Shown in pieces: positions 1,598 through 61,006 of a stretch of 64,000 nt of DNA. Made by a program: the position numbers and the translations under genes. Origin of the DNA: an uncultured Gammaproteobacteria bacterium (GTDB lineage: Bacteria; Patescibacteriota; Patescibacteriia; Magasanikbacterales; JBBTQS01); the NCBI GenBank assembly GCA_964627525.1, contig CAZVIA010000002.1:59262-123261 (forward strand), written 5' to 3'. How positions within the stretch are numbered: the first letter of the stretch is position 1; each line of letters opens with the position of its first letter. Under the pieces are notes generated by a model. That model saw nothing but the letters and a program-made list of their open reading frames with translations, had not been told where the DNA came from and did not search any database.

Positions 1598-2401
1598 ATG
1601 ATCAAATTCAACTCCCAAAAACACAAAAAACTTTTAAAAGATAAACCATTTTCATTTATATCAACTTTGGTTTATTTGGATTTTTGTGCTTATATTTTGG
1701 AGAGAAATGAAGAAGATTTGATTGTGACACAAGACAAAGTAGATAAAAAAGATTTTCCGTATTTGTTTTTGCCAAAAAATAAAAAAAACTGGAAAAACAT
1801 GACAGCCTCAATGGTTTGTGCAGAGGATTTGGAAAAAATTAAAAAATCTGATGTAAAAATTATCAAAACAAACCCAACTGTAACTGAATTTTTTTATTTA
1901 ACAAAAGATTTTCTTAATCCCACAAAAAAATACAAACAAAAAATTGGGCAGTTTGAAAAAAATTATAAGTTTAAAATCCGCAAAAAATACAATAAGAAAA
2001 AGTTGCTGAAATTTTATGATTTTTGGGAAAAACAAAAATCTGGCGATAAAAATAAAGATGAAAATGTTTTTAGAAAAGAAAGTGACGAGTTTTTTAATTT
2101 TTGTTTAAAAAATCTCAAAAAATATAATATTGAACAAATTTATGTTGAGGTTGAAGGAAAATTAGTAGGATTTGTGTGGGGAGTAAAACATTCTAAAAAC
2201 AATTGGGTAAGTTTGCATATAAAATCAGATTATAAATATCGCGGGTTAAGTAGTTTTTTAAATTTTGAAATCTCCAAAAAATTTACTAATACAAAATTAG
2301 TTTCTTTGGGTACTGGTTGCCAAGATGCAGGCTTAACTCAAAACAAAAAAGAATTAGGACCAGCTGAAGAAAAAAAATATTTTTACGTTTTAACTAGATA
2401 A
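1598..2401 (+). CDS. Hypothetical lysine-rich protein (possible GNAT-fold C-terminal region)
   Basis: Long ORF with native AT-rich composition. Start assigned to the second Met (MIKFNSQ) to avoid overlap with tsaE. No recognised motif. Confidence 0.45.
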   Translation: MIKFNSQKHKKLLKDKPFSFISTLVYLDFCAYILERNEEDLIVTQDKVDKKDFPYLFLPKNKKNWKNMTASMVCAEDLEKIKKSDVKIIKTNPTVTEFFYLTKDFLNPTKKYKQKIGQFEKNYKFKIRKKYNKKKLLKFYDFWEKQKSGDKNKDENVFRKESDEFFNFCLKNLKKYNIEQIYVEVEGKLVGFVWGVKHSKNNWVSLHIKSDYKYRGLSSFLNFEISKKFTNTKLVSLGTGCQDAGLTQNKKELGPAEEKKYFYVLTR

Positions 2402-2434
2402 TCAAAAACTCCACAAGGTGTTAACCAAGTGGAG
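2401..2434 (-). terminator. Intrinsic terminator downstream of the 94-aa GC-rich ORF
   Basis: Imperfect hairpin CTCCAC...GTGGAG followed on the minus strand by TTTTTGAT. Confidence 0.5.
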
Positions 2435-2462
2435 CCTTTTAAGTGTGTCGCATGAAATTGAC

Positions 2463-2747
2463 TCACTTTGTTTTCTGTTTGGGATAATAACCCACACTAT
2501 CCATTGCAGTGATAACACTGAAGGGTACGATCTCTTTCAAGTCTTGGAAAAGCATTCCTTCTGGAGGAAACCAGCAAATCCAATCATTATCTTGACACCT
2601 AAATCCAGCAATACTCATATGTCTTATGAAATCTTCGCAAGCAGGAACATGACCGATAAAAGTACCTAATTTAACTCTGACAGTACCAATTGGGTCATCT
2701 TCTTGGAACAAGCTAGACGGAGCTTTCCCACGATTTTTGTCCGTCAT
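2463..2747 (-). CDS. Hypothetical 94-aa protein in a compositionally foreign (GC-rich) cassette; Cys/His-rich
   Basis: ATG preceded by AAGGAGGAG (5-nt spacer). Local GC is clearly higher than flanks. Own promoter upstream and terminator downstream. His/Cys cluster HVPACEDFIRH...FRCQDNDWICW. Confidence 0.55.
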   Translation of the reverse strand: MTDKNRGKAPSSLFQEDDPIGTVRVKLGTFIGHVPACEDFIRHMSIAGFRCQDNDWICWFPPEGMLFQDLKEIVPFSVITAMDSVGYYPKQKTK

Positions 2748-2783
2748 GTTCTCCTCCTTTTCTTCTCCCTAATGAGAAGATAT

Positions 2784-2818
2784 CTTTATACCAAAAACAG
2801 CACTTTGTGTCAAGTGCT
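2784..2818 (-). promoter_or_regulatory. Sigma70-like promoter (TTGACA-17-TATAAA) inside the cls terminator hairpin
   Basis: Minus strand reads CAGCACTTGACACAAAGTGCTG TTTTTGG TATAAA. An 8-bp inverted repeat (CAGCACTT/AAGTGCTG) plus T-tract terminates cls, and its loop region contains the -35 TTGACA for the downstream small ORF. Confidence 0.5.
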
Positions 2819-2836
2819 GCTTGCTTTTAAAACAAT

Positions 2837-3949
2837 TTACAAAATCGGACTCCAAATACTCCAAATTTTCTGTAAAACTTTATCTAAAAAAGAATGTCCT
2901 TTCCAAAAATCAGGTGTAAATACTGTTGATTGTTTTTTCCATTTATTTAAAATCCTACGCAAATCCCCTATCATCTCACGATTTGTAAAAACAATATTTG
3001 CTTCATGATTATAAAACAAACTTCGCGAATCCATATTACTACTTCCAACCATTCCTAATTTGTGATCAACAACCAATGCTTTTGCATGAATCATTTCTTT
3101 TAATAAATAAAACTTCACACCCAAAGCATGTAACTCTGGAAACATTGAATGCATTGCATGATTAACTGGACCATGATTTCCTTTCATTGGCACAACCACT
3201 TCAATCCTGACTCCCCTTTTAATTGCTTTTTGAAAAGCTAATTTTAATTTTTTATCTGGCAAAAAATAAGGTGTGGTAATTAAAATTGCTTTACGCGCTT
3301 TTCTCAAAGATGTAATGTATAATTTTCTAATCTTTGATCGTGTTTTAAATTTTTTATAAGGATGCGCAAAAATAAATGCAAACTGTTTGAATTTTTTCTT
3401 GAAATTTTTAATTGGGTGACGTAGGAGATTTTTTACATGACGATGATCACCACCACCCTTAACCCAACTTGTTCCAAAAGATCTTATCATTGGCGCAACC
3501 ACATCTTTGTTTTGAATTTTTAAATGCAAATCATAATAATCTCGACTTTCTTTATAAACATTTACACCACCAATAAAACCAATCTTATTATCAATAACTA
3601 AAATCTTGCGATGATTACGATGAAATAACCGACGAAAACTTTTCACAATGCGTTTTAAAGCTAAAGATTGAAAAGACAAAACTTTTGCACCTGCTTTTTT
3701 CAAACGCTTTATTGTTGAGTATGAAAACCACCAACTACCAAAACCATCAAAAATAATTTTTACATCCAAACCAGCTTGAGCTTTTTCAACTAAAATATTT
3801 ACAAACTCATGACCAGCTTCATCATCAATCAAAATATAAGACTCCAAAAAAATAGAATGCTCTGCTCTGCGCAAAGCCCTTTTCATTGACGACCACGCTT
3901 CTTCAGTTGTTTTATAAAACTCCCATTTCATAATTATTTTTTCTGACAA
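2837..3949 (-). CDS. cls: Phospholipase D-family cardiolipin synthase (two HKD motifs)
   Basis: Two HxKxxxxD motifs: HRKILVIDNKIGFIGGVN and HAKALVVDHKLGMVGSSNMD. Confidence 0.75.
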   Translation of the reverse strand: MSEKIIMKWEFYKTTEEAWSSMKRALRRAEHSIFLESYILIDDEAGHEFVNILVEKAQAGLDVKIIFDGFGSWWFSYSTIKRLKKAGAKVLSFQSLALKRIVKSFRRLFHRNHRKILVIDNKIGFIGGVNVYKESRDYYDLHLKIQNKDVVAPMIRSFGTSWVKGGGDHRHVKNLLRHPIKNFKKKFKQFAFIFAHPYKKFKTRSKIRKLYITSLRKARKAILITTPYFLPDKKLKLAFQKAIKRGVRIEVVVPMKGNHGPVNHAMHSMFPELHALGVKFYLLKEMIHAKALVVDHKLGMVGSSNMDSRSLFYNHEANIVFTNREMIGDLRRILNKWKKQSTVFTPDFWKGHSFLDKVLQKIWSIWSPIL

Positions 3950-5545: not shown

Positions 5546-6508
5546 CTATTGTGCCATGATTTGCCTTATCTTTTCAAGTTGCACAAAATTAAATTTCATC
5601 ATGTCAATGTATGAGTCGCGATTTTCTGCCCCGCCAATAGGATCAAGTTCAATAATTTCTAATCCAAAATCTTCTGCAATTGGTTTTAAACTATCCAAAC
5701 CAATTTGAGGTTCAACAGCAATTATTTTTACATTATGCTCTTTAATTGTGTCACTTAAGTTTTTTAAATATTTTGGAGTTGGCTCTTCACCAGCAAATGG
5801 TTCAAAAGTTCCAACAATATCCAAATCATTTTCTTCAGCAAAATAAAACCATGCATCATGCATTGTGACTATTGAAATTTTTTTGTCTGAAACTTTTGTA
5901 GGAATTATTAAATTTAGTTCATCTGTATATTTCAAAAGATTTTCTTCAAAATACTCTCTATTCTTAGGATATAGTTTTGATAGTTCATTGTAAATATTTG
6001 ACGCAACTGCTTTTGCATTATGTATTGAAAGCCAATAGTGCGGATCTGAATTTTCACTTGGGATAATAGTAAAGTCTTGTGGTGTATCATAATCTACATG
6101 ATCATGGTCATGTGAATGTTGATCTGCACCCAACTCACGCAAATTTAACCCACCAAAAACAAAAATAGTTTCTGAAGTACTAATATTTTCTGACAACTTT
6201 GTAACCCAATCATCCAAACCAAACCCTACAGCAAAAATCATTTTAATCTTTTGGAGACGCTTTACATCTTTTGGTGAAAAATTAAATGTGTGTGGACTTG
6301 CTCCTGCTGGCAAAATTAATTCCACATCAATTTTATCCCCTGCAATGTTTTTTGCAATATCATAAATTGGAAAAATTGTTACAGCTATTTGTGGTTTGTT
6401 GCTTTCATTTGAAGGATTATTTTGTGATATGTTTTTGTAAACAAACCACAAACCCACAACACCAATTATTAAAATCAATACCACGAAAACCAAAAGTGTT
6501 TTTTTCAT
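5546..6508 (-). CDS. znuA: Metal ABC transporter substrate-binding protein with His-rich loop
   Basis: N-terminal signal/anchor plus a ZnuA-like cluster-9 SBP fold. The His-rich loop DQHSHDHDHVDYD is typical of zinc-binding ZnuA. Confidence 0.7.
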   Translation of the reverse strand: MKKTLLVFVVLILIIGVVGLWFVYKNISQNNPSNESNKPQIAVTIFPIYDIAKNIAGDKIDVELILPAGASPHTFNFSPKDVKRLQKIKMIFAVGFGLDDWVTKLSENISTSETIFVFGGLNLRELGADQHSHDHDHVDYDTPQDFTIIPSENSDPHYWLSIHNAKAVASNIYNELSKLYPKNREYFEENLLKYTDELNLIIPTKVSDKKISIVTMHDAWFYFAEENDLDIVGTFEPFAGEEPTPKYLKNLSDTIKEHNVKIIAVEPQIGLDSLKPIAEDFGLEIIELDPIGGAENRDSYIDMMKFNFVQLEKIRQIMAQ

Positions 6509-6551
6509 ATGTTTTTAAAAAATTTTTATTAAAAACTTCTGTGTGAACTTG

Positions 6552-6623
6552 TACCGCCAAGGGGAATCGAACCCCTGTTCCCAGGATGAGAACCTGATGT
6601 CCTAACCACTAGACGATGGCGGC
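6552..6623 (-). tRNA. tRNA-Glu (anticodon CUC)
   Basis: Manual cloverleaf: acceptor GCCGCCA/UGGCGGU with G1-U72, D arm GUCU/GGAC, anticodon stem UCAGG/CCUGG with loop UUCUCAU, T arm AGGGG-UUCGAUU-CCCCU, discriminator A. CCA is not encoded. Confidence 0.7.
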
Positions 6624-6693
6624 ATATGCAATAATAATGCCTTTTTTTCTAAGAAAAGTCAATTGCTGTTATAATTAAAGTATTGATTATTTA

Positions 6694-6722
6694 GGGCAAA
6701 ATTTGCTTGCCAAATTTTGCCC
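6694..6722. repeat. Palindromic element copy 1 (GGGCAAAATTTG-cttgc-CAAATTTTGCCC)
   Basis: Perfect 12-bp arms. Lies between the divergent tRNA-Glu and CarS-like genes, so it is not a terminator for either. Confidence 0.6.
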
Positions 6723-6738
6723 ATACAAAACTCTAAAT

Positions 6739-7284
6739 ATGATTATCTTACAAACTATTATTTTATTTTTGCCAGCTGGATTTGCAAACATGACTCCCCC
6801 TTTGTTGAAAAAAATTAATTTTTTGGCTGAGCCTATTGATTTTGGGAAAAAATTTCGTGGAAAAAGAATTTTTGGTGACCACAAAACTTGGCGCGGTTTA
6901 ATTTTTGGAATTATAGTTGCGATTGCAATTTGTTGGGCACAAAGATTATTGTATCCACATTTTGCTGAATATTCTTTGTTAGATTATCAAAATATAAATG
7001 TTAATGTACTTGGTTTTGTGTTGGGATTTGGTGCTTTAGGTGGAGATATTGTGAAAAGTTTTTTTAAAAGACAAATTGGAGTTGCTCCTGGGAAAACTTG
7101 GATAATTTTTGATCAAATTGATTGGATTGTTGGTGCAAGTTTTTTAATGTGGGTGTTTTTTGAATTTTCTCCAGATATATTTTCTGGATGGGTGTATGTT
7201 GTTGCTATTATTTTATTTGGATTGTTGCATCCTATTTTTAATTTAATTAGTTGGGTTTTAGGAATTCAGAAAAATAAATTCTAA
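6739..7284 (+). CDS. CarS/DUF46-family membrane cytidylyltransferase (CDP-archaeol synthase-like)
   Basis: MIILQTIILFLPAGFANMTPPLL...GDHKTWRGLIFGIIVAIAICW resembles the CarS/CTP-transferase-like family. ATG at 6739; the track start at 6703 is a TTG inside the palindrome. Confidence 0.55.
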   Translation: MIILQTIILFLPAGFANMTPPLLKKINFLAEPIDFGKKFRGKRIFGDHKTWRGLIFGIIVAIAICWAQRLLYPHFAEYSLLDYQNINVNVLGFVLGFGALGGDIVKSFFKRQIGVAPGKTWIIFDQIDWIVGASFLMWVFFEFSPDIFSGWVYVVAIILFGLLHPIFNLISWVLGIQKNKF

Positions 7285-23870: not shown

Positions 23871-23880
23871 TTTTAGTTTT

Positions 23881-23914
23881 ATAAGCCAAAAGGCCAATTG
23901 GCCTTTTGGCTTAT
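23881..23914. terminator. Bidirectional intrinsic terminator (15-bp perfect hairpin)
   Basis: ATAAGCCAAAAGGCC-aatt-GGCCTTTTGGCTTAT flanked by T-tract and A-tract, between convergent genes. Confidence 0.7.
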
Positions 23915-23920
23915 AAAATT

Positions 23921-27084: not shown

Positions 27085-27939
27085 TTATAGACCTAAAGCA
27101 ATTTCCAACATTTTTATAGCTTGCTTACTGTGACCCTGTCCTTCAAAAGCCACAGCAGCTCTTAATTTTGAGTTTGCAAAAACAATTGCTTCTCTAAGTT
27201 GTACACGCTCTTTTGTTTTTAAATATGAATCAATGCAATTTTGTGGATTTGCTGGGTCGCGCAAACATGCTTCTTTAGAATATTTATTTGCATCCTTAAA
27301 AAACAAACTCAATGCCACAAGCAATGAATCAAACTGTTTTTCAAACAAAACCGTAAGCAGTAGAGTTTCAAGATGAAATGATTTTATTCGCACATTACAA
27401 TTTCTTCGCCAAGCTTTTAAAATTTTTAAAGTTGGAATTATCAAATTATTTTGTGCACCATTAATTTCTTGTAATAAATGATTATGAATTGTTGGATTAG
27501 ATAAAATCCACTTTTGTTGTTTTTTAGGAAAATATTCTGGAATCATATACATTCCATCATCTGTAAAAAACGCTGGAATTATATCTGCTGTAAATCCATC
27601 ATCCAACTCAATTCCAATTGAATGTGCTTTTAACTCAGTTTTTACTTCTTGTGAAAAAATTTCACACACCAAACTTAGTAATTTTTTTGGTGAAATATCT
27701 AAATAAAAACTTTTGTCCAGCACCACAAAAAAATCCAAATCTTTTGGCGGCCTAATAATCGTATTCCTTATACAAGACCCTGTCACAAAACCATTTGTGC
27801 TTGATTTTTGTGTTGTGCAATAAAGTGACTGGCACAATTTTTTTATTTTTTCTTTGTGATAGTCTAGTTTTCTTTTTTCTTGATTTGTAAGTTCTAGTTT
27901 TTGTGTTAAATAGATTTTCAAAAATCTTTCTGCTGTCAT
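27085..27939 (-). CDS. cGAS/DncV-like (CD-NTase / SMODS-like) nucleotidyltransferase, standalone
   Basis: Pol-beta NTase signature GSCIRNTIIRPPKDLDFFV (GS-x9-12-DhD). Third acidic residue in an OAS/cGAS-like h-D-h-h-P-A-F context (TADIIPAFF). C-terminal helical region LKILKAWRRNCN...KSFHLETLLL resembles the OAS/cGAS hK.W...S..LE.L segment. The LicD NTase-fold alternative fits less well. Confidence 0.5.
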   Translation of the reverse strand: MTAERFLKIYLTQKLELTNQEKRKLDYHKEKIKKLCQSLYCTTQKSSTNGFVTGSCIRNTIIRPPKDLDFFVVLDKSFYLDISPKKLLSLVCEIFSQEVKTELKAHSIGIELDDGFTADIIPAFFTDDGMYMIPEYFPKKQQKWILSNPTIHNHLLQEINGAQNNLIIPTLKILKAWRRNCNVRIKSFHLETLLLTVLFEKQFDSLLVALSLFFKDANKYSKEACLRDPANPQNCIDSYLKTKERVQLREAIVFANSKLRAAVAFEGQGHSKQAIKMLEIALGL

Positions 27940-28168
27940 ATCTTTTGCTTTATCTTAATTATGTTTTTTAAACATTTCCCCGAACATTAGATAACCTTAG
28001 CTCTAAAAAACAAAAAATGTCAAGTGCTTTGTAGACATTTTTCTGCAAATTTATTGGGGTTTTTGGGATTTCTTTGAAATTTCTTAAAAAATAGTCAATT
28101 TTTAACCGACACCTTGCATAAAAATAAAAAACCTGCTAAACTTTTTTTGAAATTCAAGGAGGTGTGCG

Positions 28169-28288
28169 ATGTGCACCGCGTTCTGGCTTTGTGCGGGATA
28201 CCTGATGTTCTTCGATGAGAAGCCTCCCAAGGTGGAGGGAGAGCTTCCAATCGACGGGCAGAAGAACATCCCTGATGATGATCAGTGA
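28169..28288 (+). CDS. Putative 39-aa microprotein (hydrophobic N-terminus, acidic tail) in a GC-rich cassette
   Basis: AAGGAGG, 6-nt spacer, ATG; MCTAFWLCAGYLMFFDEKPPKVEGELPIDGQKNIPDDDQ; strong terminator 30 nt downstream. Not in the six-frame track because it is under 60 aa. Could alternatively be a non-coding RNA. Confidence 0.35.
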   Translation: MCTAFWLCAGYLMFFDEKPPKVEGELPIDGQKNIPDDDQ

Positions 28289-28317
28289 TTGCCTGACTAG
28301 GCAAGCTCTGACCCTCG

Positions 28318-28358
28318 CCCCTGTAGACGTTAACGCGCCTGCAGGGGATCTTTTTTTT
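28318..28358 (+). terminator. Intrinsic terminator (CCCCTG...CAGGGG + T8)
   Basis: GC-rich hairpin followed by eight T. Confidence 0.65.
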
Positions 28359-28359
28359 G

Positions 28360-28388
28360 AGGCAAAATTTGCAAAGCAAATTTTGCCT
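28360..28388. repeat. Palindromic element copy 3 (AGGCAAAATTTGC-aaa-GCAAATTTTGCCT)
   Basis: Perfect 13-bp arms, immediately adjacent to a canonical terminator. Confidence 0.6.
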
Positions 28389-28398
28389 ATTTAATATT

Positions 28399-29709: not shown

Positions 29710-29820
29710 ATTTTTGTAATTGTGTAACAACATTAGAGTACTATTTTTGGGATTTTTAGGCAAGGTTTTTTAATTGATTTATTGGGTTGACTTATTTAGA
29801 TGGATTTGATAAGGTGATCG

Positions 29821-29874
29821 GTCATGTGGTTGATAACTCCAGTATCTATTATGGCTGTTCTACAACCACATGAC
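29821..29874 (+). promoter_or_regulatory. 5' leader inverted repeat (GTCATGTGGTTG-N30-CAACCACATGAC) upstream of the deacetylase gene
   Basis: 12-bp perfect inverted repeat about 30 nt upstream of the AGGAGG/ATG. A homologous inverted repeat with compensatory changes precedes the next gene; both are preceded by a shared TTTGATAAGGT box. Confidence 0.45.
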
Positions 29875-29903
29875 ACAACCCTTGCTGAAGAGGAGGTGCT
29901 ACC

Positions 29904-30875
29904 ATGGCGCAAGTTCCTGTTGTGATGTTTCATCGAGTTGGAGATCAACAATACATGCATCATCGTGGTTTGAGACTTTCTGGAGAACACTGTCCTTTGA
30001 AAATGTTTATAAGAACCATGGAATACATCCGAGGAAATGGTTTGAATGTTATTTCGCTTTATGAATTGGTTACAAAATTGTGTTGCCAACAACTACTTCC
30101 TCCAAACAGTGTTGTACTTACTTTTGATGATGGCACTCGTGACCACTTGAAAATTGTATTGCCTATTCTTGAACAATGTGGTTTTCCAGCAACTTTTTTT
30201 GTGATGTCAGGGCCTCCTGTTTTTGGGAAAATTCCACCCACTTTTCAACTTCAGCTTATTACTGGAGATGTACACTGGGTTAAGGAGCATGGCTTGAGTT
30301 CACTTCTTGGTGCACTTGAAGAACAAAATGACCAAGAATTCACTGATTGGTGTGCCAGTGGTGCTGGAGTACCAGAAGAAAGATATATTGGTGAAGCTAG
30401 TGAAACCATTCGTAGGATAAAATACTTAATTAACTATCTTTTGCCTGCTGAACTCAAGCAAGTGATTGTGGACGCAATGTTCAAAGCAAGATTTCCAGAT
30501 ATGGATATGGAAGATGTCTGCAAACTGATGTTCTTGAGTAAAGAAGAAATTCACGAGCTTGCAGCACATAATCTGATTGACATTGGTTTTCACACAAGAA
30601 ATCACTTTAACTTAGCAACTATCGAAGATCCAAGTGTAGCTCGCACAGAGATTGTTGGAGCTTGCAGTGACCTAGGACTTGTTGGTGATTTAGCTCCCAA
30701 GCTTTTTGCCTATCCTTCTGGAGGAAAGCTGGGATATAACCTGCACCATGTAGGTATGGCACGCGCTGCATACCAGGGCGCAGTTGTGACTTGGGATCAA
30801 AAGACGTTGTGTAGTGACACCAGTAATGAATTTGAGATTCCGCGTGTGCATGAGAAGTTTTTTCCAACTAGCTAA
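29904..30875 (+). CDS. Polysaccharide deacetylase (CE4/NodB homology domain)
   Basis: LTFDDGTRDH (TFDDG motif) and PATFFV. GAGGAGG SD; GC content higher than neighbours. Confidence 0.65.
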   Translation: MAQVPVVMFHRVGDQQYMHHRGLRLSGEHCPLKMFIRTMEYIRGNGLNVISLYELVTKLCCQQLLPPNSVVLTFDDGTRDHLKIVLPILEQCGFPATFFVMSGPPVFGKIPPTFQLQLITGDVHWVKEHGLSSLLGALEEQNDQEFTDWCASGAGVPEERYIGEASETIRRIKYLINYLLPAELKQVIVDAMFKARFPDMDMEDVCKLMFLSKEEIHELAAHNLIDIGFHTRNHFNLATIEDPSVARTEIVGACSDLGLVGDLAPKLFAYPSGGKLGYNLHHVGMARAAYQGAVVTWDQKTLCSDTSNEFEIPRVHEKFFPTS

Positions 30876-30951
30876 ACATTATGTTATGTGGTGATAAACC
30901 ACGACTTAAAAGGTTGGTGTGATACCCAGTAGCTACACTAAGAGTTACATT

Positions 30952-31003
30952 CACACACCCAACGGGCTGGCCCAACAACTGGCCCGTTGTTTTTTTACTA
31001 AAA
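30952..31003 (+). terminator. Terminator repeat unit 1 (ACACACCC-AACGGGC...GCCCGTT-T7)
   Basis: Hairpin plus T7; about 50 nt nearly identical to the unit after the next gene. Confidence 0.6.
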
Positions 31004-31045
31004 TTACATATTTGACAATTTTAAATAGGTTTGATAAGGTAATTT

Positions 31046-31099
31046 GTCATGTGGCTAATAGCCTGTGATTTTATTACGCGAACAGTACAGCCACATGAC
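31046..31099 (+). promoter_or_regulatory. 5' leader inverted repeat (GTCATGTGGCT-N32-AGCCACATGAC) upstream of the 364-aa hypothetical gene
   Basis: Homologue of the 29821-29874 element. The arms differ at the distal positions (TTG/CAA versus CT/AG) in a compensatory manner. Confidence 0.45.
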
Positions 31100-31125
31100 A
31101 ACCACTAGGCAAAGGGAGGATTCTG

Positions 31126-32220
31126 ATGTCAGAAAAGACTCTTGATCTTTCACAATCTAATCAGCAATTGGCAACAGCTTGCTTGATTGAGCCAGCTCTA
31201 AATGAGCCTGATAAGTTGGACATGACACTACTTGCTCAAGTGCTTTTGTATAATCGCAAGAATCGTGATCCTAAGCGGTATGCTGATATTTGTGAACTTG
31301 CAGCAAATGAACTTCAACCAAGAGAGAGGGGTGAGAAAACCACTCATATTGCTCACATTCACCTACTTTTGCAAGTTGTGAATGGTTTGAGAAGACAAGC
31401 CGGACTTTGGGACTTAGAACCAGCACTTTCAACTCTTAGGATGGCATCAACAGTTGATACATTTACTACTTTTAAAGGTATTGAAGTAGTCAAGCTACAA
31501 ATAGAAATTCAGCGACAAACTGCAATGATTTATAGATTGAGGGGTAATTACGAAAGAGCCTATCTTAATCACAAAAGTGCTTCTAGACTAGCTAGGCTGA
31601 ATAAATTATTTGCTGGAGCTACTGTTTTTGACTTTTGTGCTGATGTAGATAGTGCAAATCTAGCTTTGTGTGATGGTGATGAAGTTGTTGTGAAAAAGAA
31701 CCTTGGTATACTTTTGGATTCGTATCACACACTGTTTCTTCCAAAGTTTAATGGAGATGAACAAGTTGAATACTGGCGTGTAGCTAATGCACCTATTCAC
31801 GTGCTATGGGCTCACTTTCTAGCAGGTAAATCACTTGTGGAAATGGGTGAAGGAAAAACCAGTGGAATTGTAGAATTCAAAGAGTATACTGAGATGGGCT
31901 TCTACCTTTTGCAAGATTTTCCTCTAAAACCTATTGCTGAAAGATTCACACATTGGCTTGATATACTTCAAATCATGTGGTGGTTGCGCATTTTGAAAAT
32001 CTATGAACCTCTAGCAAAATCACATGCCTTTCAACTTGTCGATGACAACAGACACCCTGATGTAGTTGCAACTGCCCTACTAATGCTGGCAGAAATTGCC
32101 ACCAAGAACCGCAGACTAGCTGATGCAACAAAGTATTTGAATGACATTATTGAGCTTGAAAGCCATAGTGCGCACGTGGTACGTGCAATTGCCAAGCGCA
32201 GATTGGAAGGTCTTGCATGA
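31126..32220 (+). CDS. Hypothetical 364-aa protein (predicted all-helical), island gene
   Basis: GGGAGG SD and GC-richer codon usage; no recognisable catalytic motif. Confidence 0.5.
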   Translation: MSEKTLDLSQSNQQLATACLIEPALNEPDKLDMTLLAQVLLYNRKNRDPKRYADICELAANELQPRERGEKTTHIAHIHLLLQVVNGLRRQAGLWDLEPALSTLRMASTVDTFTTFKGIEVVKLQIEIQRQTAMIYRLRGNYERAYLNHKSASRLARLNKLFAGATVFDFCADVDSANLALCDGDEVVVKKNLGILLDSYHTLFLPKFNGDEQVEYWRVANAPIHVLWAHFLAGKSLVEMGEGKTSGIVEFKEYTEMGFYLLQDFPLKPIAERFTHWLDILQIMWWLRILKIYEPLAKSHAFQLVDDNRHPDVVATALLMLAEIATKNRRLADATKYLNDIIELESHSAHVVRAIAKRRLEGLA

Positions 32221-32260
32221 TAATGGTGTGATATTCTTTCTTTAAAATAAAGATGAACTC

Positions 32261-32322
32261 CACACCACACACCCCAACGGGCCGGCTCAACAACTGGCCC
32301 GTTGTTTTTTTACTAAAAAAAA
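32261..32322 (+). terminator. Terminator repeat unit 2
   Basis: CACACACCCCAACGGGCCGGCTCAACAACTGGCCCGTTGTTTTTTT is nearly identical to 30952-31003. Repeat 1 has U.G where repeat 2 has C-G. Confidence 0.6.
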
Positions 32323-32372: not shown

Positions 32373-33614
32373 ATGAGAGAAAAATTAAAACAAGTTTTGC
32401 TTTGGAGTCAAAAATATACAAAAACTGATATGTTGTATTTGGCGCAAGGTGGATTTTGGTTAACACTTGGAAAAACCAGTGTAATTGCAAGTGCGTTTTT
32501 GTTGTCTATTGCTTTTGCAAATCTGTTGCCAAAAGAAGTTTACGGAACTTATCAATATGTTTTATCTATTATTGGCTTATTAACTGTTACAACTTTAATT
32601 GAATTAAACACCTCCTTAATGCGATCTGTTGCTCGTGGTTTTGAAGGAGAATTTTTTCCAGCTTTGTATACACGCATGAAATTTGGTGTGTTGGGTGGAT
32701 TGGCTTCACTTGGTTTAGGTGGATATTATTTTTTCCAAGGAAATAATACTTTGGGTGTGGCATTTGCTATGGCTGCGTTTTTCATTCCAATTATGGAACC
32801 TGTTGGAATGTTTGGTGATGTACTAAAAGGCAAAAAAATGTTCAGGCTGTCTGCAAAAATGCAGATGATTTCTCGCTCGCTTTCTTTTGTTGCAATGGGA
32901 ACAACATTATTTTTTACAAATAATATTTTTGTAGTGTTGCTAGCTTACTTTATTCCACGATTGTTGATTAGGTTTTTTTCACACTTGTACATTATTATTA
33001 AAGTACAAATGAATAAAAAACGTAATAATGAAACTTTAATTTATGGAAAACAATTAAGCGTGCTATCTGTTTTACAAACTTTTGCAGCACAGCTAGATAA
33101 GATTTTGGTTTTCCATTATTTAGGTGCAGCTGAGTTAGCTGTTTATTATTTTGCAATTGCGCCTGAGGGTCAAATAAAAACTTTGTTTTCATCTTTAAAA
33201 ACCCTAGCTTTTCCAAAATTTAGTAACATGGACAAAGAATTAATTAAAGCAAGTTTACCACGCAAAATTTTGCAATTTCAGTTGATGATAATTTTGCCAA
33301 TTGTTGTGATTTATATTATTGCCGCACCTTTTGTTTTTGAATGGCTGTTCCCACAATACATGGATGCTGTTCCATTTTCACAAATTGCAATTTTAATGTT
33401 GTTATTTTTTCCCAAAGGCTTGCTATCTTCAGCTTTGGTTGCGCAGAAAAAAACAAAAATGCTTTATTTTCTTAAAACATTGTCCCCTGTTGTGCGATCA
33501 TTGATTTTATTGGGAGCTGTTTATTTTTACGGATTAAATGGAATTGTAGTTGGGTTAGTTGTAAATGGTGCAATTATTTATACTTTGTACTTTGCGTTTT
33601 TCAAAAAAATGTAG
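32373..33614 (+). CDS. Oligosaccharide flippase (Wzx/MOP superfamily)
   Basis: 413 aa with about 12 TM helices, typical polysaccharide-biosynthesis-protein family layout. Confidence 0.65.
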   Translation: MREKLKQVLLWSQKYTKTDMLYLAQGGFWLTLGKTSVIASAFLLSIAFANLLPKEVYGTYQYVLSIIGLLTVTTLIELNTSLMRSVARGFEGEFFPALYTRMKFGVLGGLASLGLGGYYFFQGNNTLGVAFAMAAFFIPIMEPVGMFGDVLKGKKMFRLSAKMQMISRSLSFVAMGTTLFFTNNIFVVLLAYFIPRLLIRFFSHLYIIIKVQMNKKRNNETLIYGKQLSVLSVLQTFAAQLDKILVFHYLGAAELAVYYFAIAPEGQIKTLFSSLKTLAFPKFSNMDKELIKASLPRKILQFQLMIILPIVVIYIIAAPFVFEWLFPQYMDAVPFSQIAILMLLFFPKGLLSSALVAQKKTKMLYFLKTLSPVVRSLILLGAVYFYGLNGIVVGLVVNGAIIYTLYFAFFKKM

Positions 33615-35876: not shown

Positions 35877-35889
35877 AAATTAAATCCTA

Positions 35890-37065
35890 TCACTTTTGTT
35901 TGGTTGTGTCAAGTTCACTTGGTTCACTTCTCAAACCTAAAACTTGGATCAGCTCTTTGATTTTATTTTCAATTGAAAACTGATTTTTAATTTTTTCAAA
36001 ACCTTTTGCGCCTATTTTTTCTCGCAACTCTTTATTAGTCACAAGTTCATCTAAATATTGTGCAATTTGTTGTGGAGATTTTTTATCTACTAAAAATCCA
36101 TCTTGTTTATGATCAATCATTTCTGGAGCAGACCCAACTTTTGTTGAAATCACTGGCAAAGCAAAAGACATTGCTTCCAAAATAACATTTGGTGAACCTT
36201 CAGACACAGAAGCAAACACAAAAATTGATGAACACATATATTGTTCATCTAATTTCACTGAATCTAATCTCCCTAAAAACTCAACTTGATTTTCAATTCC
36301 TAATTCTTTAGTCTTATTTTTATAAAAATCCAAAAGATAACCAGCTCCAGCTAATTTAATTTTCAACTTCCCAACATATTCTTTATTTTGTTTTTTCAAA
36401 ATTGCCACAGCTTCAAACAAATCCTCATAAGCTTTCTCTCGCCAATTTAAAGAACCTACCATTAAAATTATTAAGTCTTGATGTTGTAATCTTTTTTTAA
36501 TTAAATCCCCTGCTTTAGATTGATCAATTTTCATTTCAACACCATTTACCAAAACATCCATTTTATTTTTTTGAGTTGGCTGTATTTCTTCAGCAAATTT
36601 TTTCATTTCTTGAGAAACCAAAATAATTTTTTCAGAAAATCTATTTAAGATCTTATCTAGAAATTTAAACTTTTTTGATTTAAAAGTTGGCTTACCTTTT
36701 TTATCTACAAAAGATGTACCAGATTCTCTAATATATATTTTCACTTTAGGAACAAACAACTTCACAATTCTAGCAACAATATTTGATAATTCTAAAGTAG
36801 AATATATAACCTTAATATTGTTTTTCTTGATTATCTTCCTTAATTTTAGGTAAATTCTAGGATTTAACCAGTGTTTTAAATTTAAATTAAATTGATTTGC
36901 TTTGGGGATTTGCAACTCACCCAAATACCCATCTTGCTTGGTATTTGTAAGAGAAGTGAAAAAAACACCTTCATGTATTTTATATAAAGAATTCATTTGC
37001 AACAAAAACTGGCGTTCTGCACCACCTCTATTCAAATTATTAATTAAAAAAATTACGTTTTTCAT
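35890..37065 (-). CDS. Glycosyltransferase family 4
   Basis: SEGSPNVILEAMSFALPVISTKVGS. Start placed at MKNVIFL to remove the overlap with the upstream gene. Confidence 0.7.
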   Translation of the reverse strand: MKNVIFLINNLNRGGAERQFLLQMNSLYKIHEGVFFTSLTNTKQDGYLGELQIPKANQFNLNLKHWLNPRIYLKLRKIIKKNNIKVIYSTLELSNIVARIVKLFVPKVKIYIRESGTSFVDKKGKPTFKSKKFKFLDKILNRFSEKIILVSQEMKKFAEEIQPTQKNKMDVLVNGVEMKIDQSKAGDLIKKRLQHQDLIILMVGSLNWREKAYEDLFEAVAILKKQNKEYVGKLKIKLAGAGYLLDFYKNKTKELGIENQVEFLGRLDSVKLDEQYMCSSIFVFASVSEGSPNVILEAMSFALPVISTKVGSAPEMIDHKQDGFLVDKKSPQQIAQYLDELVTNKELREKIGAKGFEKIKNQFSIENKIKELIQVLGLRSEPSELDTTKQK

Positions 37066-58927: not shown

Positions 58928-61006
58928 AATCTCCAAATATTGATTTGCAGAATCAATATCCCCCACTTCAATAAATACATCAGCAGCAGCCTTAATAAAA
59001 ATTACTTTCTTTGGATCGTCAAACCCCATTTCCAGAGGGATTTTAAAGTATTCTGCAGATTTATCATACATTTCAAATCCAGCATAAAACATTGCCAAGC
59101 GCCAATAAGATTCCATGACATCTGGATTTAACTCAATTGCTTTTAACAAAATCTTCTCCCCTTCCCCAAACATACTTAGCATCATTGAGGTCTGCCCAAG
59201 TTCATACATTATTTGTTGTCTTTCAGGTGAATAGCTTAAAATATTTTTATAAATATTATTAGCCTCTACTAAATAACCTGCAACACCTTCATACAATCCA
59301 GCTTGAAAATATAACTGCCCAAGTATAATACCCGATCTTATGTCATATGGATGCATTAGTATTTCTTTTTTCAAATCTTCAGTTACAACAGGATAAACAA
59401 TTTTATAATAACGATCCATTAAATCAGGATTCCCCGTACTTAAAACACTTTTTACTTGCATAGCAAACCCACGAACAATATCATCTCTGTGCGGTGTTGG
59501 AATTTGTTTTGCTATTTCATAATTTTGCAATGCTGTTATAAAAGCATTCCCTTTTTGATTTGCATCAACAGTTGTATATGGCAACACATCATGAAGAATC
59601 ATATTTGCTTTTGCTGGAAAAATATTAAATCTATAAATTAAAAATATAGCAAACACTAAAGTCACTACACCCACACCCCATGCAATACTTTTAACTTTTA
59701 CATAACCAGTTTCTTCAACTTCATTTTTATTACCTAGAGAATCAACAAAAGCCAACAACAAAAAGAAATACAAATACGAAGAAACATTTTCAAACACAAA
59801 TAAATTATGTACAAAATGTCCTATCCAAAAAGCATACATTAAATAACCAACATATTTTAAATCTGGATGTCTCTTGATTAATTTATGTGTGGACCACAAT
59901 GCAAAAACAAATAATAATAAATACACTAACAAACCCACGACACCTTGTGTTGCCAAAGTATTTAATAAAATATTATGTGCATTATCAAACCAAGTTTCAT
60001 TCATTCCAAAACTCAGAAATTCAGGATTATAATATTGGTTAAAAGCAAAAAAGAAATTATTTGGACCCCATCCAAAAACAGGATATTCTTTTGATGCTTC
60101 AACAGCTATTTCCCAAGCCATTGCACGAGTTTTTCCACTACCTTGTGTAAAAGAAAATTGTGTTAAACGATACAAATAGGTGTTTCCTTTAACAAAATCT
60201 GTGTCGCGCATCATAAACAAAGTTCCCCCAAACAACACACCAACAGCTAATAATCCTATAGCAACACTTCTCCATTTTTTTGCCAATGAATCAGTTTTTG
60301 CTAACAACACCAACAAAACAACACCAGCAACTCCAACACCTAACCAAGTACCACGAGTTTGTGTTAACAAAACAATCAACAAAGAAATTACTGCATATGA
60401 CGCCCACAAAACTTTTTCCCAATTTATTTTTGATTTAATAAACAACATCATGCTTATTGCAGCTGTAAACATTGCATAAGCACTTACATAAATTGTGTTA
60501 CCAAAAGTTGATCGCACACGCTCACTACCTTGATTTAACAAATATTCAGGATCAATCAATTGATAAAAAGCTATCAACCAAATAGGTATTGCTAAAACAA
60601 GAATCCACACAAATAACCATTTCCATTCTCTCCACTCTGTAAAAACCTGTCGCCCAACTAAATATAAGACTAAATAATGTAACATTGTATACAAGCCCAA
60701 CATCCTTTCGTGGTTATCCCACAAACTATGATAAGAATCTACACCAGTAAAACTTGAAATTAAAAATGAAACAAAAAACAATAATACACCAACCAGCAAA
60801 AAACTTTTATAAGGTTTTGCTTGCTTCCAAAATCCAACTAAATAAAAAACATAAACAACCAACAGCAAAGAAATCAAAATCCTAAAGTAAATCATTTTTG
60901 GCACAACAAAAGGAAAAACATAATGATTTAAACTAACTATCAAAGGGGTTATAAAAGCCAAAGCTATAAATCCTTGTAAAAATCTTTTTATCCAAATTGA
61001 TTTCAT
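58901..61006 (-). CDS. O-antigen ligase (Wzy_C)-family membrane protein fused to C-terminal TPR repeats
   Basis: About 12 TM helices with a large periplasmic loop typical of WaaL/PglL-like ligases, then a ~250-aa TPR region. Confidence 0.6.
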   Translation of the reverse strand: MKSIWIKRFLQGFIALAFITPLIVSLNHYVFPFVVPKMIYFRILISLLLVVYVFYLVGFWKQAKPYKSFLLVGVLLFFVSFLISSFTGVDSYHSLWDNHERMLGLYTMLHYLVLYLVGRQVFTEWREWKWLFVWILVLAIPIWLIAFYQLIDPEYLLNQGSERVRSTFGNTIYVSAYAMFTAAISMMLFIKSKINWEKVLWASYAVISLLIVLLTQTRGTWLGVGVAGVVLLVLLAKTDSLAKKWRSVAIGLLAVGVLFGGTLFMMRDTDFVKGNTYLYRLTQFSFTQGSGKTRAMAWEIAVEASKEYPVFGWGPNNFFFAFNQYYNPEFLSFGMNETWFDNAHNILLNTLATQGVVGLLVYLLLFVFALWSTHKLIKRHPDLKYVGYLMYAFWIGHFVHNLFVFENVSSYLYFFLLLAFVDSLGNKNEVEETGYVKVKSIAWGVGVVTLVFAIFLIYRFNIFPAKANMILHDVLPYTTVDANQKGNAFITALQNYEIAKQIPTPHRDDIVRGFAMQVKSVLSTGNPDLMDRYYKIVYPVVTEDLKKEILMHPYDIRSGIILGQLYFQAGLYEGVAGYLVEANNIYKNILSYSPERQQIMYELGQTSMMLSMFGEGEKILLKAIELNPDVMESYWRLAMFYAGFEMYDKSAEYFKIPLEMGFDDPKKVIFIKAAADVFIEVGDIDSANQYLEILGEQVSVE

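Follow-up and report, generated by a model that had tools for sequence, protein, structure and literature searches.

Why should two adjacent genes of one bacterium each be provided with a complete, and closely similar, set of expression signals? The question is raised by a stretch of 64,000 nucleotides (nt) of contig CAZVIA010000002.1 from an uncultured bacterium (positions 59,262 to 123,261; hereafter, the window), in which two tandem, co-oriented plus-strand genes occupy positions 29766-32318. The first encodes a CE4 deacetylase of 323 amino acids (aa), and the second a protein of 364 aa. Both genes are embedded in the same layout, namely, a predicted promoter, an inverted repeat, a Shine-Dalgarno site, the open reading frame (ORF), a second hairpin of the form GGTGTG...CACACC and an intrinsic terminator (units A and B, respectively). 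The units form part of a surface-polysaccharide locus. On the left, they are bordered by a divergent, minus-strand gene of the UDP-glucose/GDP-mannose-dehydrogenase family (28399-29709/29733) and, on the right, by wzx, the gene for a Wzx-type flippase (32373-33614).

The answer that we favour, and to which we give about an even chance, is that these are two autonomous, insulated, monocistronic units with hairpin-capped mRNAs, in which foreign ORFs reside within host-type frames. A first-pass annotation of the same DNA had described the 5' architecture common to both genes, which is indeed there, while overlooking the -35 hexamers and the second 3' hairpin. All coordinates, except where a related locus is named, are those of the whole window on the forward strand; about 83 kb of the genome was examined in all. 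The 2.8-kb region that contains the units is 100% identical in 7 full-length contig copies from at least 4 samples and, therefore, is not an assembly artefact. No strain variants were found at this slot among the contigs from different samples that carry the exact wzx, all nine of which (9/9) share the arrangement. The NCBIfam equivalog cut-offs are not reached by the host proteins.

Predicted promoters and leader hairpins

The 5' parts of the two units consist of the following features.

29766-29786, plus strand: left edge of unit A, a T-run and spacer (TTTTTTAATTGATTTATTGGG) matching, in the alignment, the T-tail and spacer after terminator 1
29787-29815, plus strand: predicted promoter A, with -35 TTGACT (29787-29792), a 17-nt spacer and extended -10 TGaTAAGGT (29807-29815)
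29821-29874, plus strand: leader hairpin A, arms GTCATGTGGTTG / CAACCACATGAC (29821-29832/29863-29874), 12 bp, perfect, 30-nt loop
29890-29896, plus strand: Shine-Dalgarno site A, GAGGAGG, 7 nt ahead of the ATG
31012-31040, plus strand: predicted promoter B, with -35 TTGACA (31012-31017), a 17-nt spacer and extended -10 TGaTAAGGT (31032-31040)
31044-31101, plus strand: leader hairpin B, arms TTGTCATGTGGCT / AGCCACATGACAA (31044-31056/31089-31101), 13 bp, perfect, 32-nt loop
31114-31119, plus strand: Shine-Dalgarno site B, GGGAGG, 6 nt ahead of the ATG

According to the repeat finder, the two 5' modules (29766-29835 and 30991-31060) are 71% identical over 70 nt. Both predicted promoters are of the sigma-70 type in form (TTGACW, 17 nt, TGaTAAGGT), as read from the sequence: the -35 hexamers match the consensus at 5/6 positions in A and 6/6 in B, and the -10 hexamer TAAGGT matches TATAAT at 3/6, with A2 and T6 retained. 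Because of this partial fit of the -10 element, a consensus promoter scan made no call at either site. The TTTGATAAGGT box that the first-pass annotation had marked before each gene is present at exactly these two sites within the window, and is now interpreted as the predicted extended -10 region rather than as a separate element. The same promoter form occurs in a native setting, before pigL (TTGACA-17-TGaTAGGAT, 35884-35912, minus strand), and another native form that was observed is TTGACA-17-TATAAT. The -10 element of pigL ends 7 nt ahead of the pigL ATG, so that the pigL mRNA would be leaderless.

In each unit, the -35 element, spacer and extended -10 element stand 4-6 nt ahead of the hairpin, which begins 6 nt after the -10 element in A and 4 nt after it in B; the stems would therefore lie at the extreme 5' end of the predicted transcripts. 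Hairpin A folds at -21.1 kcal/mol (z -5.3), with none of 200 shuffled sequences folding equally well, and the core of hairpin B (31046-31099, 11 of the 13 bp) at -19.1 kcal/mol (z -3.6). The Shine-Dalgarno sites lie 12-15 nt downstream of the stems and, accordingly, are not occluded by them. Bacterial mRNAs are reportedly stabilised by 5'-terminal stem-loops (Emory, Bouvet & Belasco 1992; Bouvet & Belasco 1992). The leaders resemble such stabilisers, known from the ompA and papA 5' untranslated regions (UTRs) of E. coli and from B. subtilis, in having a stable hairpin at the predicted transcript start, upstream of the ribosome-binding site; they differ in that the start site is a predicted one, the loop is unusually long (30-32 nt) and the stem sequence recurs at three genes.

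The inverted repeats that had been reported at both leaders are found by the repeat finder as well, both of them perfect, and the exact 9-mer GTCATGTGG occurs in the 64 kb only in the four arms. The accompanying claim, that the arms covary between the copies, needs to be toned down. In the alignment of the two leaders, 10/12 pairs are invariant, one is compensatory (U-A versus C-G) and one is unpaired in copy B; this single compensatory event comes with a shuffle control of 254/500, and because two copies give such a control no discriminating power, the claim is statistically empty. Three putative upstream ORFs in the leaders (starting with ATG at 29851, 29870 and 31093) were considered and dropped, being devoid of Shine-Dalgarno sites, embedded in the stem or the loop and without conservation from one copy to the other.

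A third hairpin upstream of an ECF sigma-factor gene

A covariance model made from the two window leaders was run on the window, the related loci and the sequence past the right end of the window. There was no further copy in the window or the related loci, and one related hairpin in the sequence beyond (L123, 2199-2254), with arms GGTGTGTGGGTGG / CCACCCACACACC, a perfect 13-bp stem and a 30-nt loop. It scores 23 bits, with an E-value of about 0.003 under a roughly calibrated model. This hairpin belongs to the same genome and lies about 7 kb past the right end of the window, in minus-strand orientation relative to it; an ECF sigma-factor gene of native appearance (GC content 0.34, no Shine-Dalgarno site) follows about 65 nt downstream. 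In common with the window leaders, it has the TGTGG/CCACA core, the ATAAC loop start, the loop length and an ACAC after the 3' arm. With this copy added to the alignment, 4/12 pairs are compensatory and 97% of the cells are paired, with a shuffle control of 4/500. A model based on all three sequences detected nothing further, its sole match, a non-significant one, falling on hairpin H2 in the 3' region of unit B, the GGTGTG/CACACC stem of which resembles the outer part of the L123 hairpin. L123 also contains a 26-nt direct repeat, CATTTTGTATAGACTAGTGTATACAA (1995-2020 and 2105-2130), which separates the ECF sigma gene from a small HTH_17 regulator gene and looks like a duplicated operator.

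These three copies bring up the possibility that the long-loop hairpin (TGTGG...CCACA, loop start ATAAC) is a specific cis-regulatory RNA of this lineage, serving as a protein-binding site or RNase substrate and not as a passive stabiliser, through which the ECF sigma operon and the CE4 and 364-aa genes would be under joint post-transcriptional control. All three copies present in the roughly 83 kb are in 5' leaders and share a 12-14 bp stem, a 30-32 nt loop, the stem core and the loop start; the stem is retained through 4 compensatory pairs, and co-control of surface-glycan genes with an envelope-stress-type sigma factor would make functional sense. We nevertheless regard this possibility as unlikely, given that the loops are otherwise poorly conserved, the third copy reaches only the above 23 bits, the element has neither an Rfam family nor a candidate binding protein, and unrelated hairpins at the same position in two related loci (L112 and L010, see below) favour a generic structural role. 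No Rfam covariance model matched the leaders at the gathering score, and with an E-value limit of 10, the three matches obtained were at chance level and none was on the leaders.

Searches for further copies elsewhere were likewise negative. The inverted-repeat pattern had 83 matches in the genome contig collection, about the number estimated to occur by chance; the promoter box accompanies none of these, the majority of which are longer, unrelated palindromes or reside in high-GC genomes. In viral contigs, the inverted repeat, the box plus arm and the terminator yielded no matches or chance matches only, and in metagenome contigs, the box plus arm yielded 5 chance matches. The genome, viral and metagenome collections returned none of the window's own contigs, which makes their negatives weak. 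Comparison of the intergenic frame with phages and plasmids (blastn), and of the 364-aa protein with plasmids (tblastn), produced nothing useful.

3' ends and terminators

The 3' regions of the two units are built in the same manner.

30916-30959, plus strand: 3' hairpin H1, GGTGTG...CACACC stem with a variable interior, directly before terminator 1
30960-30996, plus strand: intrinsic terminator 1, 11-bp stem with 7 G-C pairs, 8-nt loop, T7 tail
32224-32267, plus strand: 3' hairpin H2, UGGUGUG...CACACCA stem, beginning 4 nt past the stop codon
32275-32311, plus strand: intrinsic terminator 2, 11-bp stem with 8 G-C pairs, 8-nt loop, T7, and a conserved tail ACTAAAA extending to 32318

In H1 and H2, TGGTGTGATA...CACAC(C) is kept in both copies, which thus agree in the stem and vary in the interior; the 3' UTRs as a whole fold with z -3.4 in unit A and z -6.7 in unit B (-35.2 kcal/mol). 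At both terminator sites, the sequence has the G+C-rich stem-loop, directly followed by a T-run, that defines an intrinsic terminator, and the two rank first among the terminator-like sites of the 14 kb scanned. For the 28-nt terminator core, the window yields 2 matches and 100 shuffles yield none. The near-identity of the terminators described in the first-pass annotation is borne out, the copies differing at one pair (U.G versus C-G) and at one base of the loop. The two are ordinary intrinsic terminators, except for being 96% identical including loop and tail and for each following a second conserved hairpin. The repeat finder delimits the 3' modules at 30958-31003 and 32273-32318 (96% identity over 46 nt), so that 46-nt direct repeats, the terminators themselves, flank the 1,315-bp segment that extends from promoter B through terminator 2. 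The 96% identity of the terminators, loop and tail included, compared with 71% for the 5' module, suggests that the terminators were copied more recently or have since been homogenised.

The recurrence of one stem style at both ends of the units bears on the alternative, which had been left open alongside an RNA hairpin, that the inverted repeat consists of DNA operator half-sites at which a repressor would block both promoters from +1 onward and so co-regulate them. A position immediately downstream of the -10 element is common for repressor operators, and it is there that the 9-bp half-site, identical in four arms, is found. The half-site centres, however, are about 45 bp apart, which is atypical of a dimeric repressor; positions flanking the core differ between the copies and yet remain complementary; the hairpin of the sigma-factor gene differs at 4/12 arm positions, with full compensation, which fits pairing and not sequence-specific protein contacts; the same stem style recurs in the 3' UTRs, where an operator would be senseless; and the gene list holds no regulator gene within about 10 kb on either side of the units. 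Because of the half-site distance, the compensated differences and the 3' stems, the operator is disfavoured and, in our assessment, very unlikely, and the RNA hairpin is the better reading of the two.

Conserved outer arms, a variable interior and retained pairing, that is, the logic of an imperfect palindrome, also give the inverted repeats a general resemblance to attC sites, in which case the genes would be integron-like cassettes. In every particular, this likeness fails. The arms GTCATGTGG / CCACATGAC depart from the R''/R' consensus (RYYYAAC / GTTRRRY) and pair perfectly, leaving no base extrahelical. Each repeat separates a promoter from its ORF instead of following the ORF, and the second gene is not followed by one. 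Nor do the Pfam lists, which cover about 20 kb around the units, contain an integrase. With the consensus boxes, extrahelical bases, position and integrase all against it, the integron reading is effectively refuted and keeps a negligible probability.

Composition and translation signals

The composition of the two genes was compared with that of the 57 non-overlapping ORFs of at least 120 aa in the window. The CE4 gene and the 364-aa gene have GC contents of 0.409 and 0.399, respectively, against a mean of 0.331 (standard deviation 0.029), which places them about 2.3-2.7 standard deviations above the other ORFs; the sole ORF with a higher GC content (131 aa) overlaps the dehydrogenase gene and is probably spurious. 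The main source of the excess is the first codon position, where the values of 0.559 (CE4) and 0.553 (364-aa gene) are the two highest in the window. At the third codon position (GC3), the respective values are 0.306 and 0.288, compared with a mean of 0.221 (standard deviation 0.045), that is, only 1.5-1.9 standard deviations high.

The contrast in translation signals is sharper. AGGAGG or GGAGG directly before the first start codon is found in 2/57 ORFs, these being the CE4 and 364-aa genes, and native genes have A/T-rich leaders, generally without a Shine-Dalgarno site. Thus, both points of the first-pass annotation stand, Shine-Dalgarno sites strong and unlike those of native genes, and a compositional difference which, on quantification, is real but modest. 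It is the presence of Shine-Dalgarno sites in an otherwise Shine-Dalgarno-less genome, together with the higher GC content, that makes the ORFs look foreign.

The two proteins

29904-30875, plus strand: CE4 polysaccharide deacetylase gene, 323 aa, PF01522 with E 1.8e-13
31126-32220, plus strand: 364-aa gene, product predicted to be an all-alpha TPR-like solenoid of a small uncharacterised family of polysaccharide/nonulosonic-acid loci

The assignment of the first protein to CE4 is clear from the PF01522 match (50.9 bits against a cut-off of 23.1) and from the motifs TFDDG (73-77) and HTRNH (229-233). Its nearest solved relatives are the PgaB/BpsB-type deacetylases, and with PgaB, IcaB and BpsB it shares PF01522 with the TFDD and HxxxH metal and catalytic motifs. 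Unlike these enzymes, the window protein is apparently cytoplasmic, no N-terminal signal sequence being obvious by eye, and belongs to a distinct subfamily, a dozen of its relatives being 39-43% identical to it; members of this subfamily adjoin genes for NeuB, CMP-sugar synthetase and UDP-sugar dehydrogenase.

The 364-aa protein had been described as lacking any recognisable motif, a statement that gives way to a family of distant homologs and a confident model of a TPR-like solenoid. In a word-indexed search, it matches itself only, and an exhaustive search recovered 14 distant relatives with 25-46% identity. The 13 relatives that were aligned are 21-30% identical to it across the whole alignment, with R89, L124, A145, W217 and H225 invariant. 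Folded with the family alignment, the protein gives an all-alpha model with pLDDT 84.8 and pTM 0.86, as opposed to pLDDT 41 without the alignment. This all-alpha superhelix, similar in size to known TPR-solenoid proteins, resembles the TPR folds of LGN, RapI, NprR and MalT domain III (TM 0.45-0.52, best Foldseek E 0.008). It differs from LGN, Rap, NprR and MalT domain III in having no significant sequence or Foldseek match and in its own invariant R89, W217 and H225; the Pfam TPR_2 match has an E-value of 0.014, below the cut-off. The resemblance is one of fold only and does not make the protein a TPR/RRNPP-type receptor, and, unlike RRNPP receptors, it has no helix-turn-helix, catalytic or DNA-binding domain detected by Pfam. 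The models of defence systems gave no match to this protein. A tyrosine recombinase, suggested by the invariant Arg, His and Trp, was considered and rejected, in view of the absence of a Pfam integrase domain and the TPR-like solenoid model. On the strength of the predicted fold, the protein is treated here as a putative TPR-like adaptor or ligand-binding protein that may act in glycan modification.

In another protein, P0110 (886 aa), 13 separate stretches match residues ~60-90 of the 364-aa protein with 46% identity; P0110 is therefore a repeat protein with many copies of that helix-pair motif.

Related loci and the history of the units

A syntenic locus of a relative, L112 (JGI 3300009375), encodes flanking proteins that are 56-73% identical to those of the window, in the order epimerase, dehydrogenase, SMODS, dehydrogenase, CE4, wzx, CDP-alcohol transferase, WbqC, PIG-L and glycosyltransferase. 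The CE4 gene of L112 (4981-5954) occupies the same slot, encodes a protein 43% identical to the window CE4, carries GAGGAGG and has a GC content of 0.53 versus 0.39-0.43 for its neighbours; in a neighbour-joining tree, the two CE4 proteins are sisters on long branches. The 364-aa gene is not present in the L112 slot, and the leader and terminator of the L112 CE4 gene differ from those in the window. On the left side, homology between the two loci stops at GGCAAGGTT, just before window position 29770. Since L112 holds CE4 in the same slot without the 364-aa gene, only the 364-aa unit is lineage-specific, and the two units were not inserted jointly and recently. What survives of the horizontally acquired cassette pair of the first-pass annotation, then, are two co-oriented, foreign-looking genes, framed separately by paralogous regulatory modules. 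That the modules themselves were imported is not supported: they look host-derived, native promoters having the same form and the third hairpin preceding an ECF sigma gene of native appearance.

Homologs of the 364-aa gene are found next to genes for NeuB, CMP-sugar synthetase, 2-hydroxyacid dehydrogenase, HAD phosphatase and Wzy. In L010, from another genome of the same sample set, the homolog (6001-7047) is a stand-alone plus-strand gene among minus-strand genes, near dehydrogenase genes, with a GC content of 0.548 versus 0.35-0.41, and comes with a TTGACA-17-TAATAT promoter, an AGGAGG and a terminator of its own. The L014 homolog (2213-3232) has a GC content of 0.664 versus 0.48-0.50. The GC3 values compare with those of the neighbours as 0.63 versus 0.33-0.39 in L010, 0.865 versus 0.46-0.59 in L014 and 0.565 versus 0.32-0.37 for the L112 CE4 gene. 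Both families, thus, recur as GC-rich single-gene islands in surface-glycan loci, a pattern that suggests, on compositional grounds, repeated transfer from high-GC donors into low-GC surface-glycan loci. A conserved pair of CE4 and 364-aa genes was considered and rejected, the 340-aa neighbour of CE4 in L110 being an unrelated membrane protein; another candidate neighbour, of 362 aa and without a Pfam domain, is present in a JGI contig.

The window repeat is not shared by the leaders of the CE4 homologs (L007, L009, L110, L112) or of the 364-aa homologs (L010, L012, L014), and none of the related loci has the hairpin or terminator sequences of the window. The CE4 gene of L112 and the 364-aa homolog of L010 have the same layout in unrelated sequence, namely, a promoter, a hairpin at the predicted +1, a Shine-Dalgarno site, and a 3' hairpin and terminator.

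Single ORFs with their own signals have a known parallel in the PeSL (promoter-early stem-loop) cassettes of T4-type phages, which are repeated promoter and stem-loop units (PMC2839356, PMC4122927). As in the PeSLs, composite units of a sigma-70-like promoter and a stem-loop/terminator flank unrelated, often orphan, single ORFs, each ORF has its own expression signals, and neighbouring intergenic regions share ~50-100 bp of homology. The differences are that the units here are two in number and reside in a bacterial chromosome, whereas PeSLs are phage-borne and come by the dozen; that the hairpin here follows the promoter, in the leader, and a separate terminator precedes the promoter; and that there is no sign of circles or shuffling here, as far as is known from sequence alone.

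Accordingly, the frames could be PeSL-like recombination landing pads that exist mainly for mobilisation, through which homologous exchange would insert single ORFs into the polysaccharide locus, excise them as small circles or swap them. The 46-nt, 96% identical direct repeats of the 364-aa unit are the expected trace of the integration of a circle through the terminator, and the T-run and spacer resembling a terminator tail recur at the left edge of unit A. Moreover, the slot varies between relatives, with CE4 43% identical where the neighbours are 56-73% identical and the 364-aa gene either present or absent, and elsewhere, homologs of both genes recur as GC-rich islands of one gene each, complete with a Shine-Dalgarno site, a promoter and a terminator. 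Against this, PeSLs are dense, and the ~83 kb of the genome hold only two full frames; homologous genes in L112, L010 and L110 are surrounded by frames of unrelated sequence; gain or loss variants are absent among the nine contigs with the exact wzx; and the viral, genome, metagenome, phage and plasmid collections yielded no copies. The direct repeats would fit recombination between units that yields deletions, insertions or circles; the relative that lacks the 364-aa unit also lacks the frames, and the strain contigs are all identical. We consider a primary role in mobilisation improbable.

A scenario for the two units

Under the scenario that we favour, each unit would be transcribed from its own sigma-70-type promoter, with the transcript starting at, or within a few nt of, the base of the perfect 12-13 bp stem that encloses the ~30-nt loop. 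A strong Shine-Dalgarno site would drive translation in a genome whose own genes have none, and the transcript would finish in the second hairpin followed by the strong intrinsic terminator. The 5'-terminal stem-loop and the 3' double hairpin would cap the mRNA, probably protecting it from 5'-end-dependent and 3'-exonucleolytic decay, and each gene would be insulated from the neighbouring host operons, such that both products are made autonomously and in parallel.

With regard to origin, the ORFs would be foreign in ancestry, and the frame would have been assembled from host-type parts, that is, the promoter form and the hairpin type of the native ECF sigma leader. Because the relative has CE4 in the same slot, the CE4 unit is likely to be old, predating the split from the L112 lineage. 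The 364-aa unit would have come later in this lineage, through duplication of the resident frame or recombination with it, either of which fits the 46-nt, 96% identical direct repeats around the 1,315-bp segment.

Several points weigh against this scenario. The start sites and, hence, the 5'-terminal position of the hairpins are only predicted, from a -10 element that matches the consensus at 3/6 positions and went uncalled by the scan. For a simple stabiliser, a loop of ~30 nt is large, and it hints at a more specific role. The window leaders supply a single compensatory pair; the L123 hairpin was chosen by a structure-aware search and a model-fitted alignment, so that the covariation counts are biased toward structure, and MAFFT alone puts its arms in another register. 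The difference between 96% identity in the terminator and 71% in the 5' module needs an extra assumption, recent recombination or gene conversion. Finally, GC3 is only 1.5-1.9 standard deviations high, so that a foreign origin of the ORFs is suggested, and not proven, for this genome.

A small chance is left that there is something more unusual here, either in the hairpin, as an undescribed lineage-specific leader element of an ECF sigma operon and two glycan genes, or in the frame, as an ORF-capturing device and a chromosomal counterpart of the PeSLs. Overall, what we describe is fairly ordinary gene capture combined with regulatory duplication, an undescribed but conventional arrangement of known elements and not a new kind of system.

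Other features of the locus

Directly upstream of the dehydrogenase gene, at 29735-29746, is the box AGAGTACTATTT, which holds the palindrome AGTACT and is kept twice in L112 (4768-4779 and 4818-4829); it might serve this divergent gene as an operator or promoter element of the host. A perfect 42-nt palindrome, TTTTATAAGCCAAAAGGCCAATTGGCCTTTTGGCTTATAAAA, at 23877-23918 between two convergent genes, is probably a bidirectional terminator. The minus strand at 27085-27939 encodes a full-length CBASS-type oligonucleotide cyclase (Pfam SMODS; PADLOC 'Cyclase', E 3.9e-45), alone between two UDP-sugar dehydrogenase paralogs, without a recognisable adjoining effector gene and with ~460 nt of unannotated sequence upstream (gap 27940-28398). 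The cyclase is syntenic in L112 but only 39% identical, compared with 56-73% for its neighbours.

Implications

The present observations do not overturn current understanding, and their value lies in the description and in a testable hypothesis on gene capture in surface-glycan loci. Two elements are worth a database entry: the undescribed leader hairpin, with three copies in one genome, and the small TPR-like family, with the distinct CE4 subfamily, as GC-rich single-gene islands of nonulosonic-acid and polysaccharide loci across several uncultured lineages. If the favoured scenario is true, the two units would be a natural example of the expression of acquired genes in a genome that does not use Shine-Dalgarno sites, whereby a foreign ORF keeps its own ribosome-binding site inside a copied, host-type frame that insulates it from the neighbouring operons.

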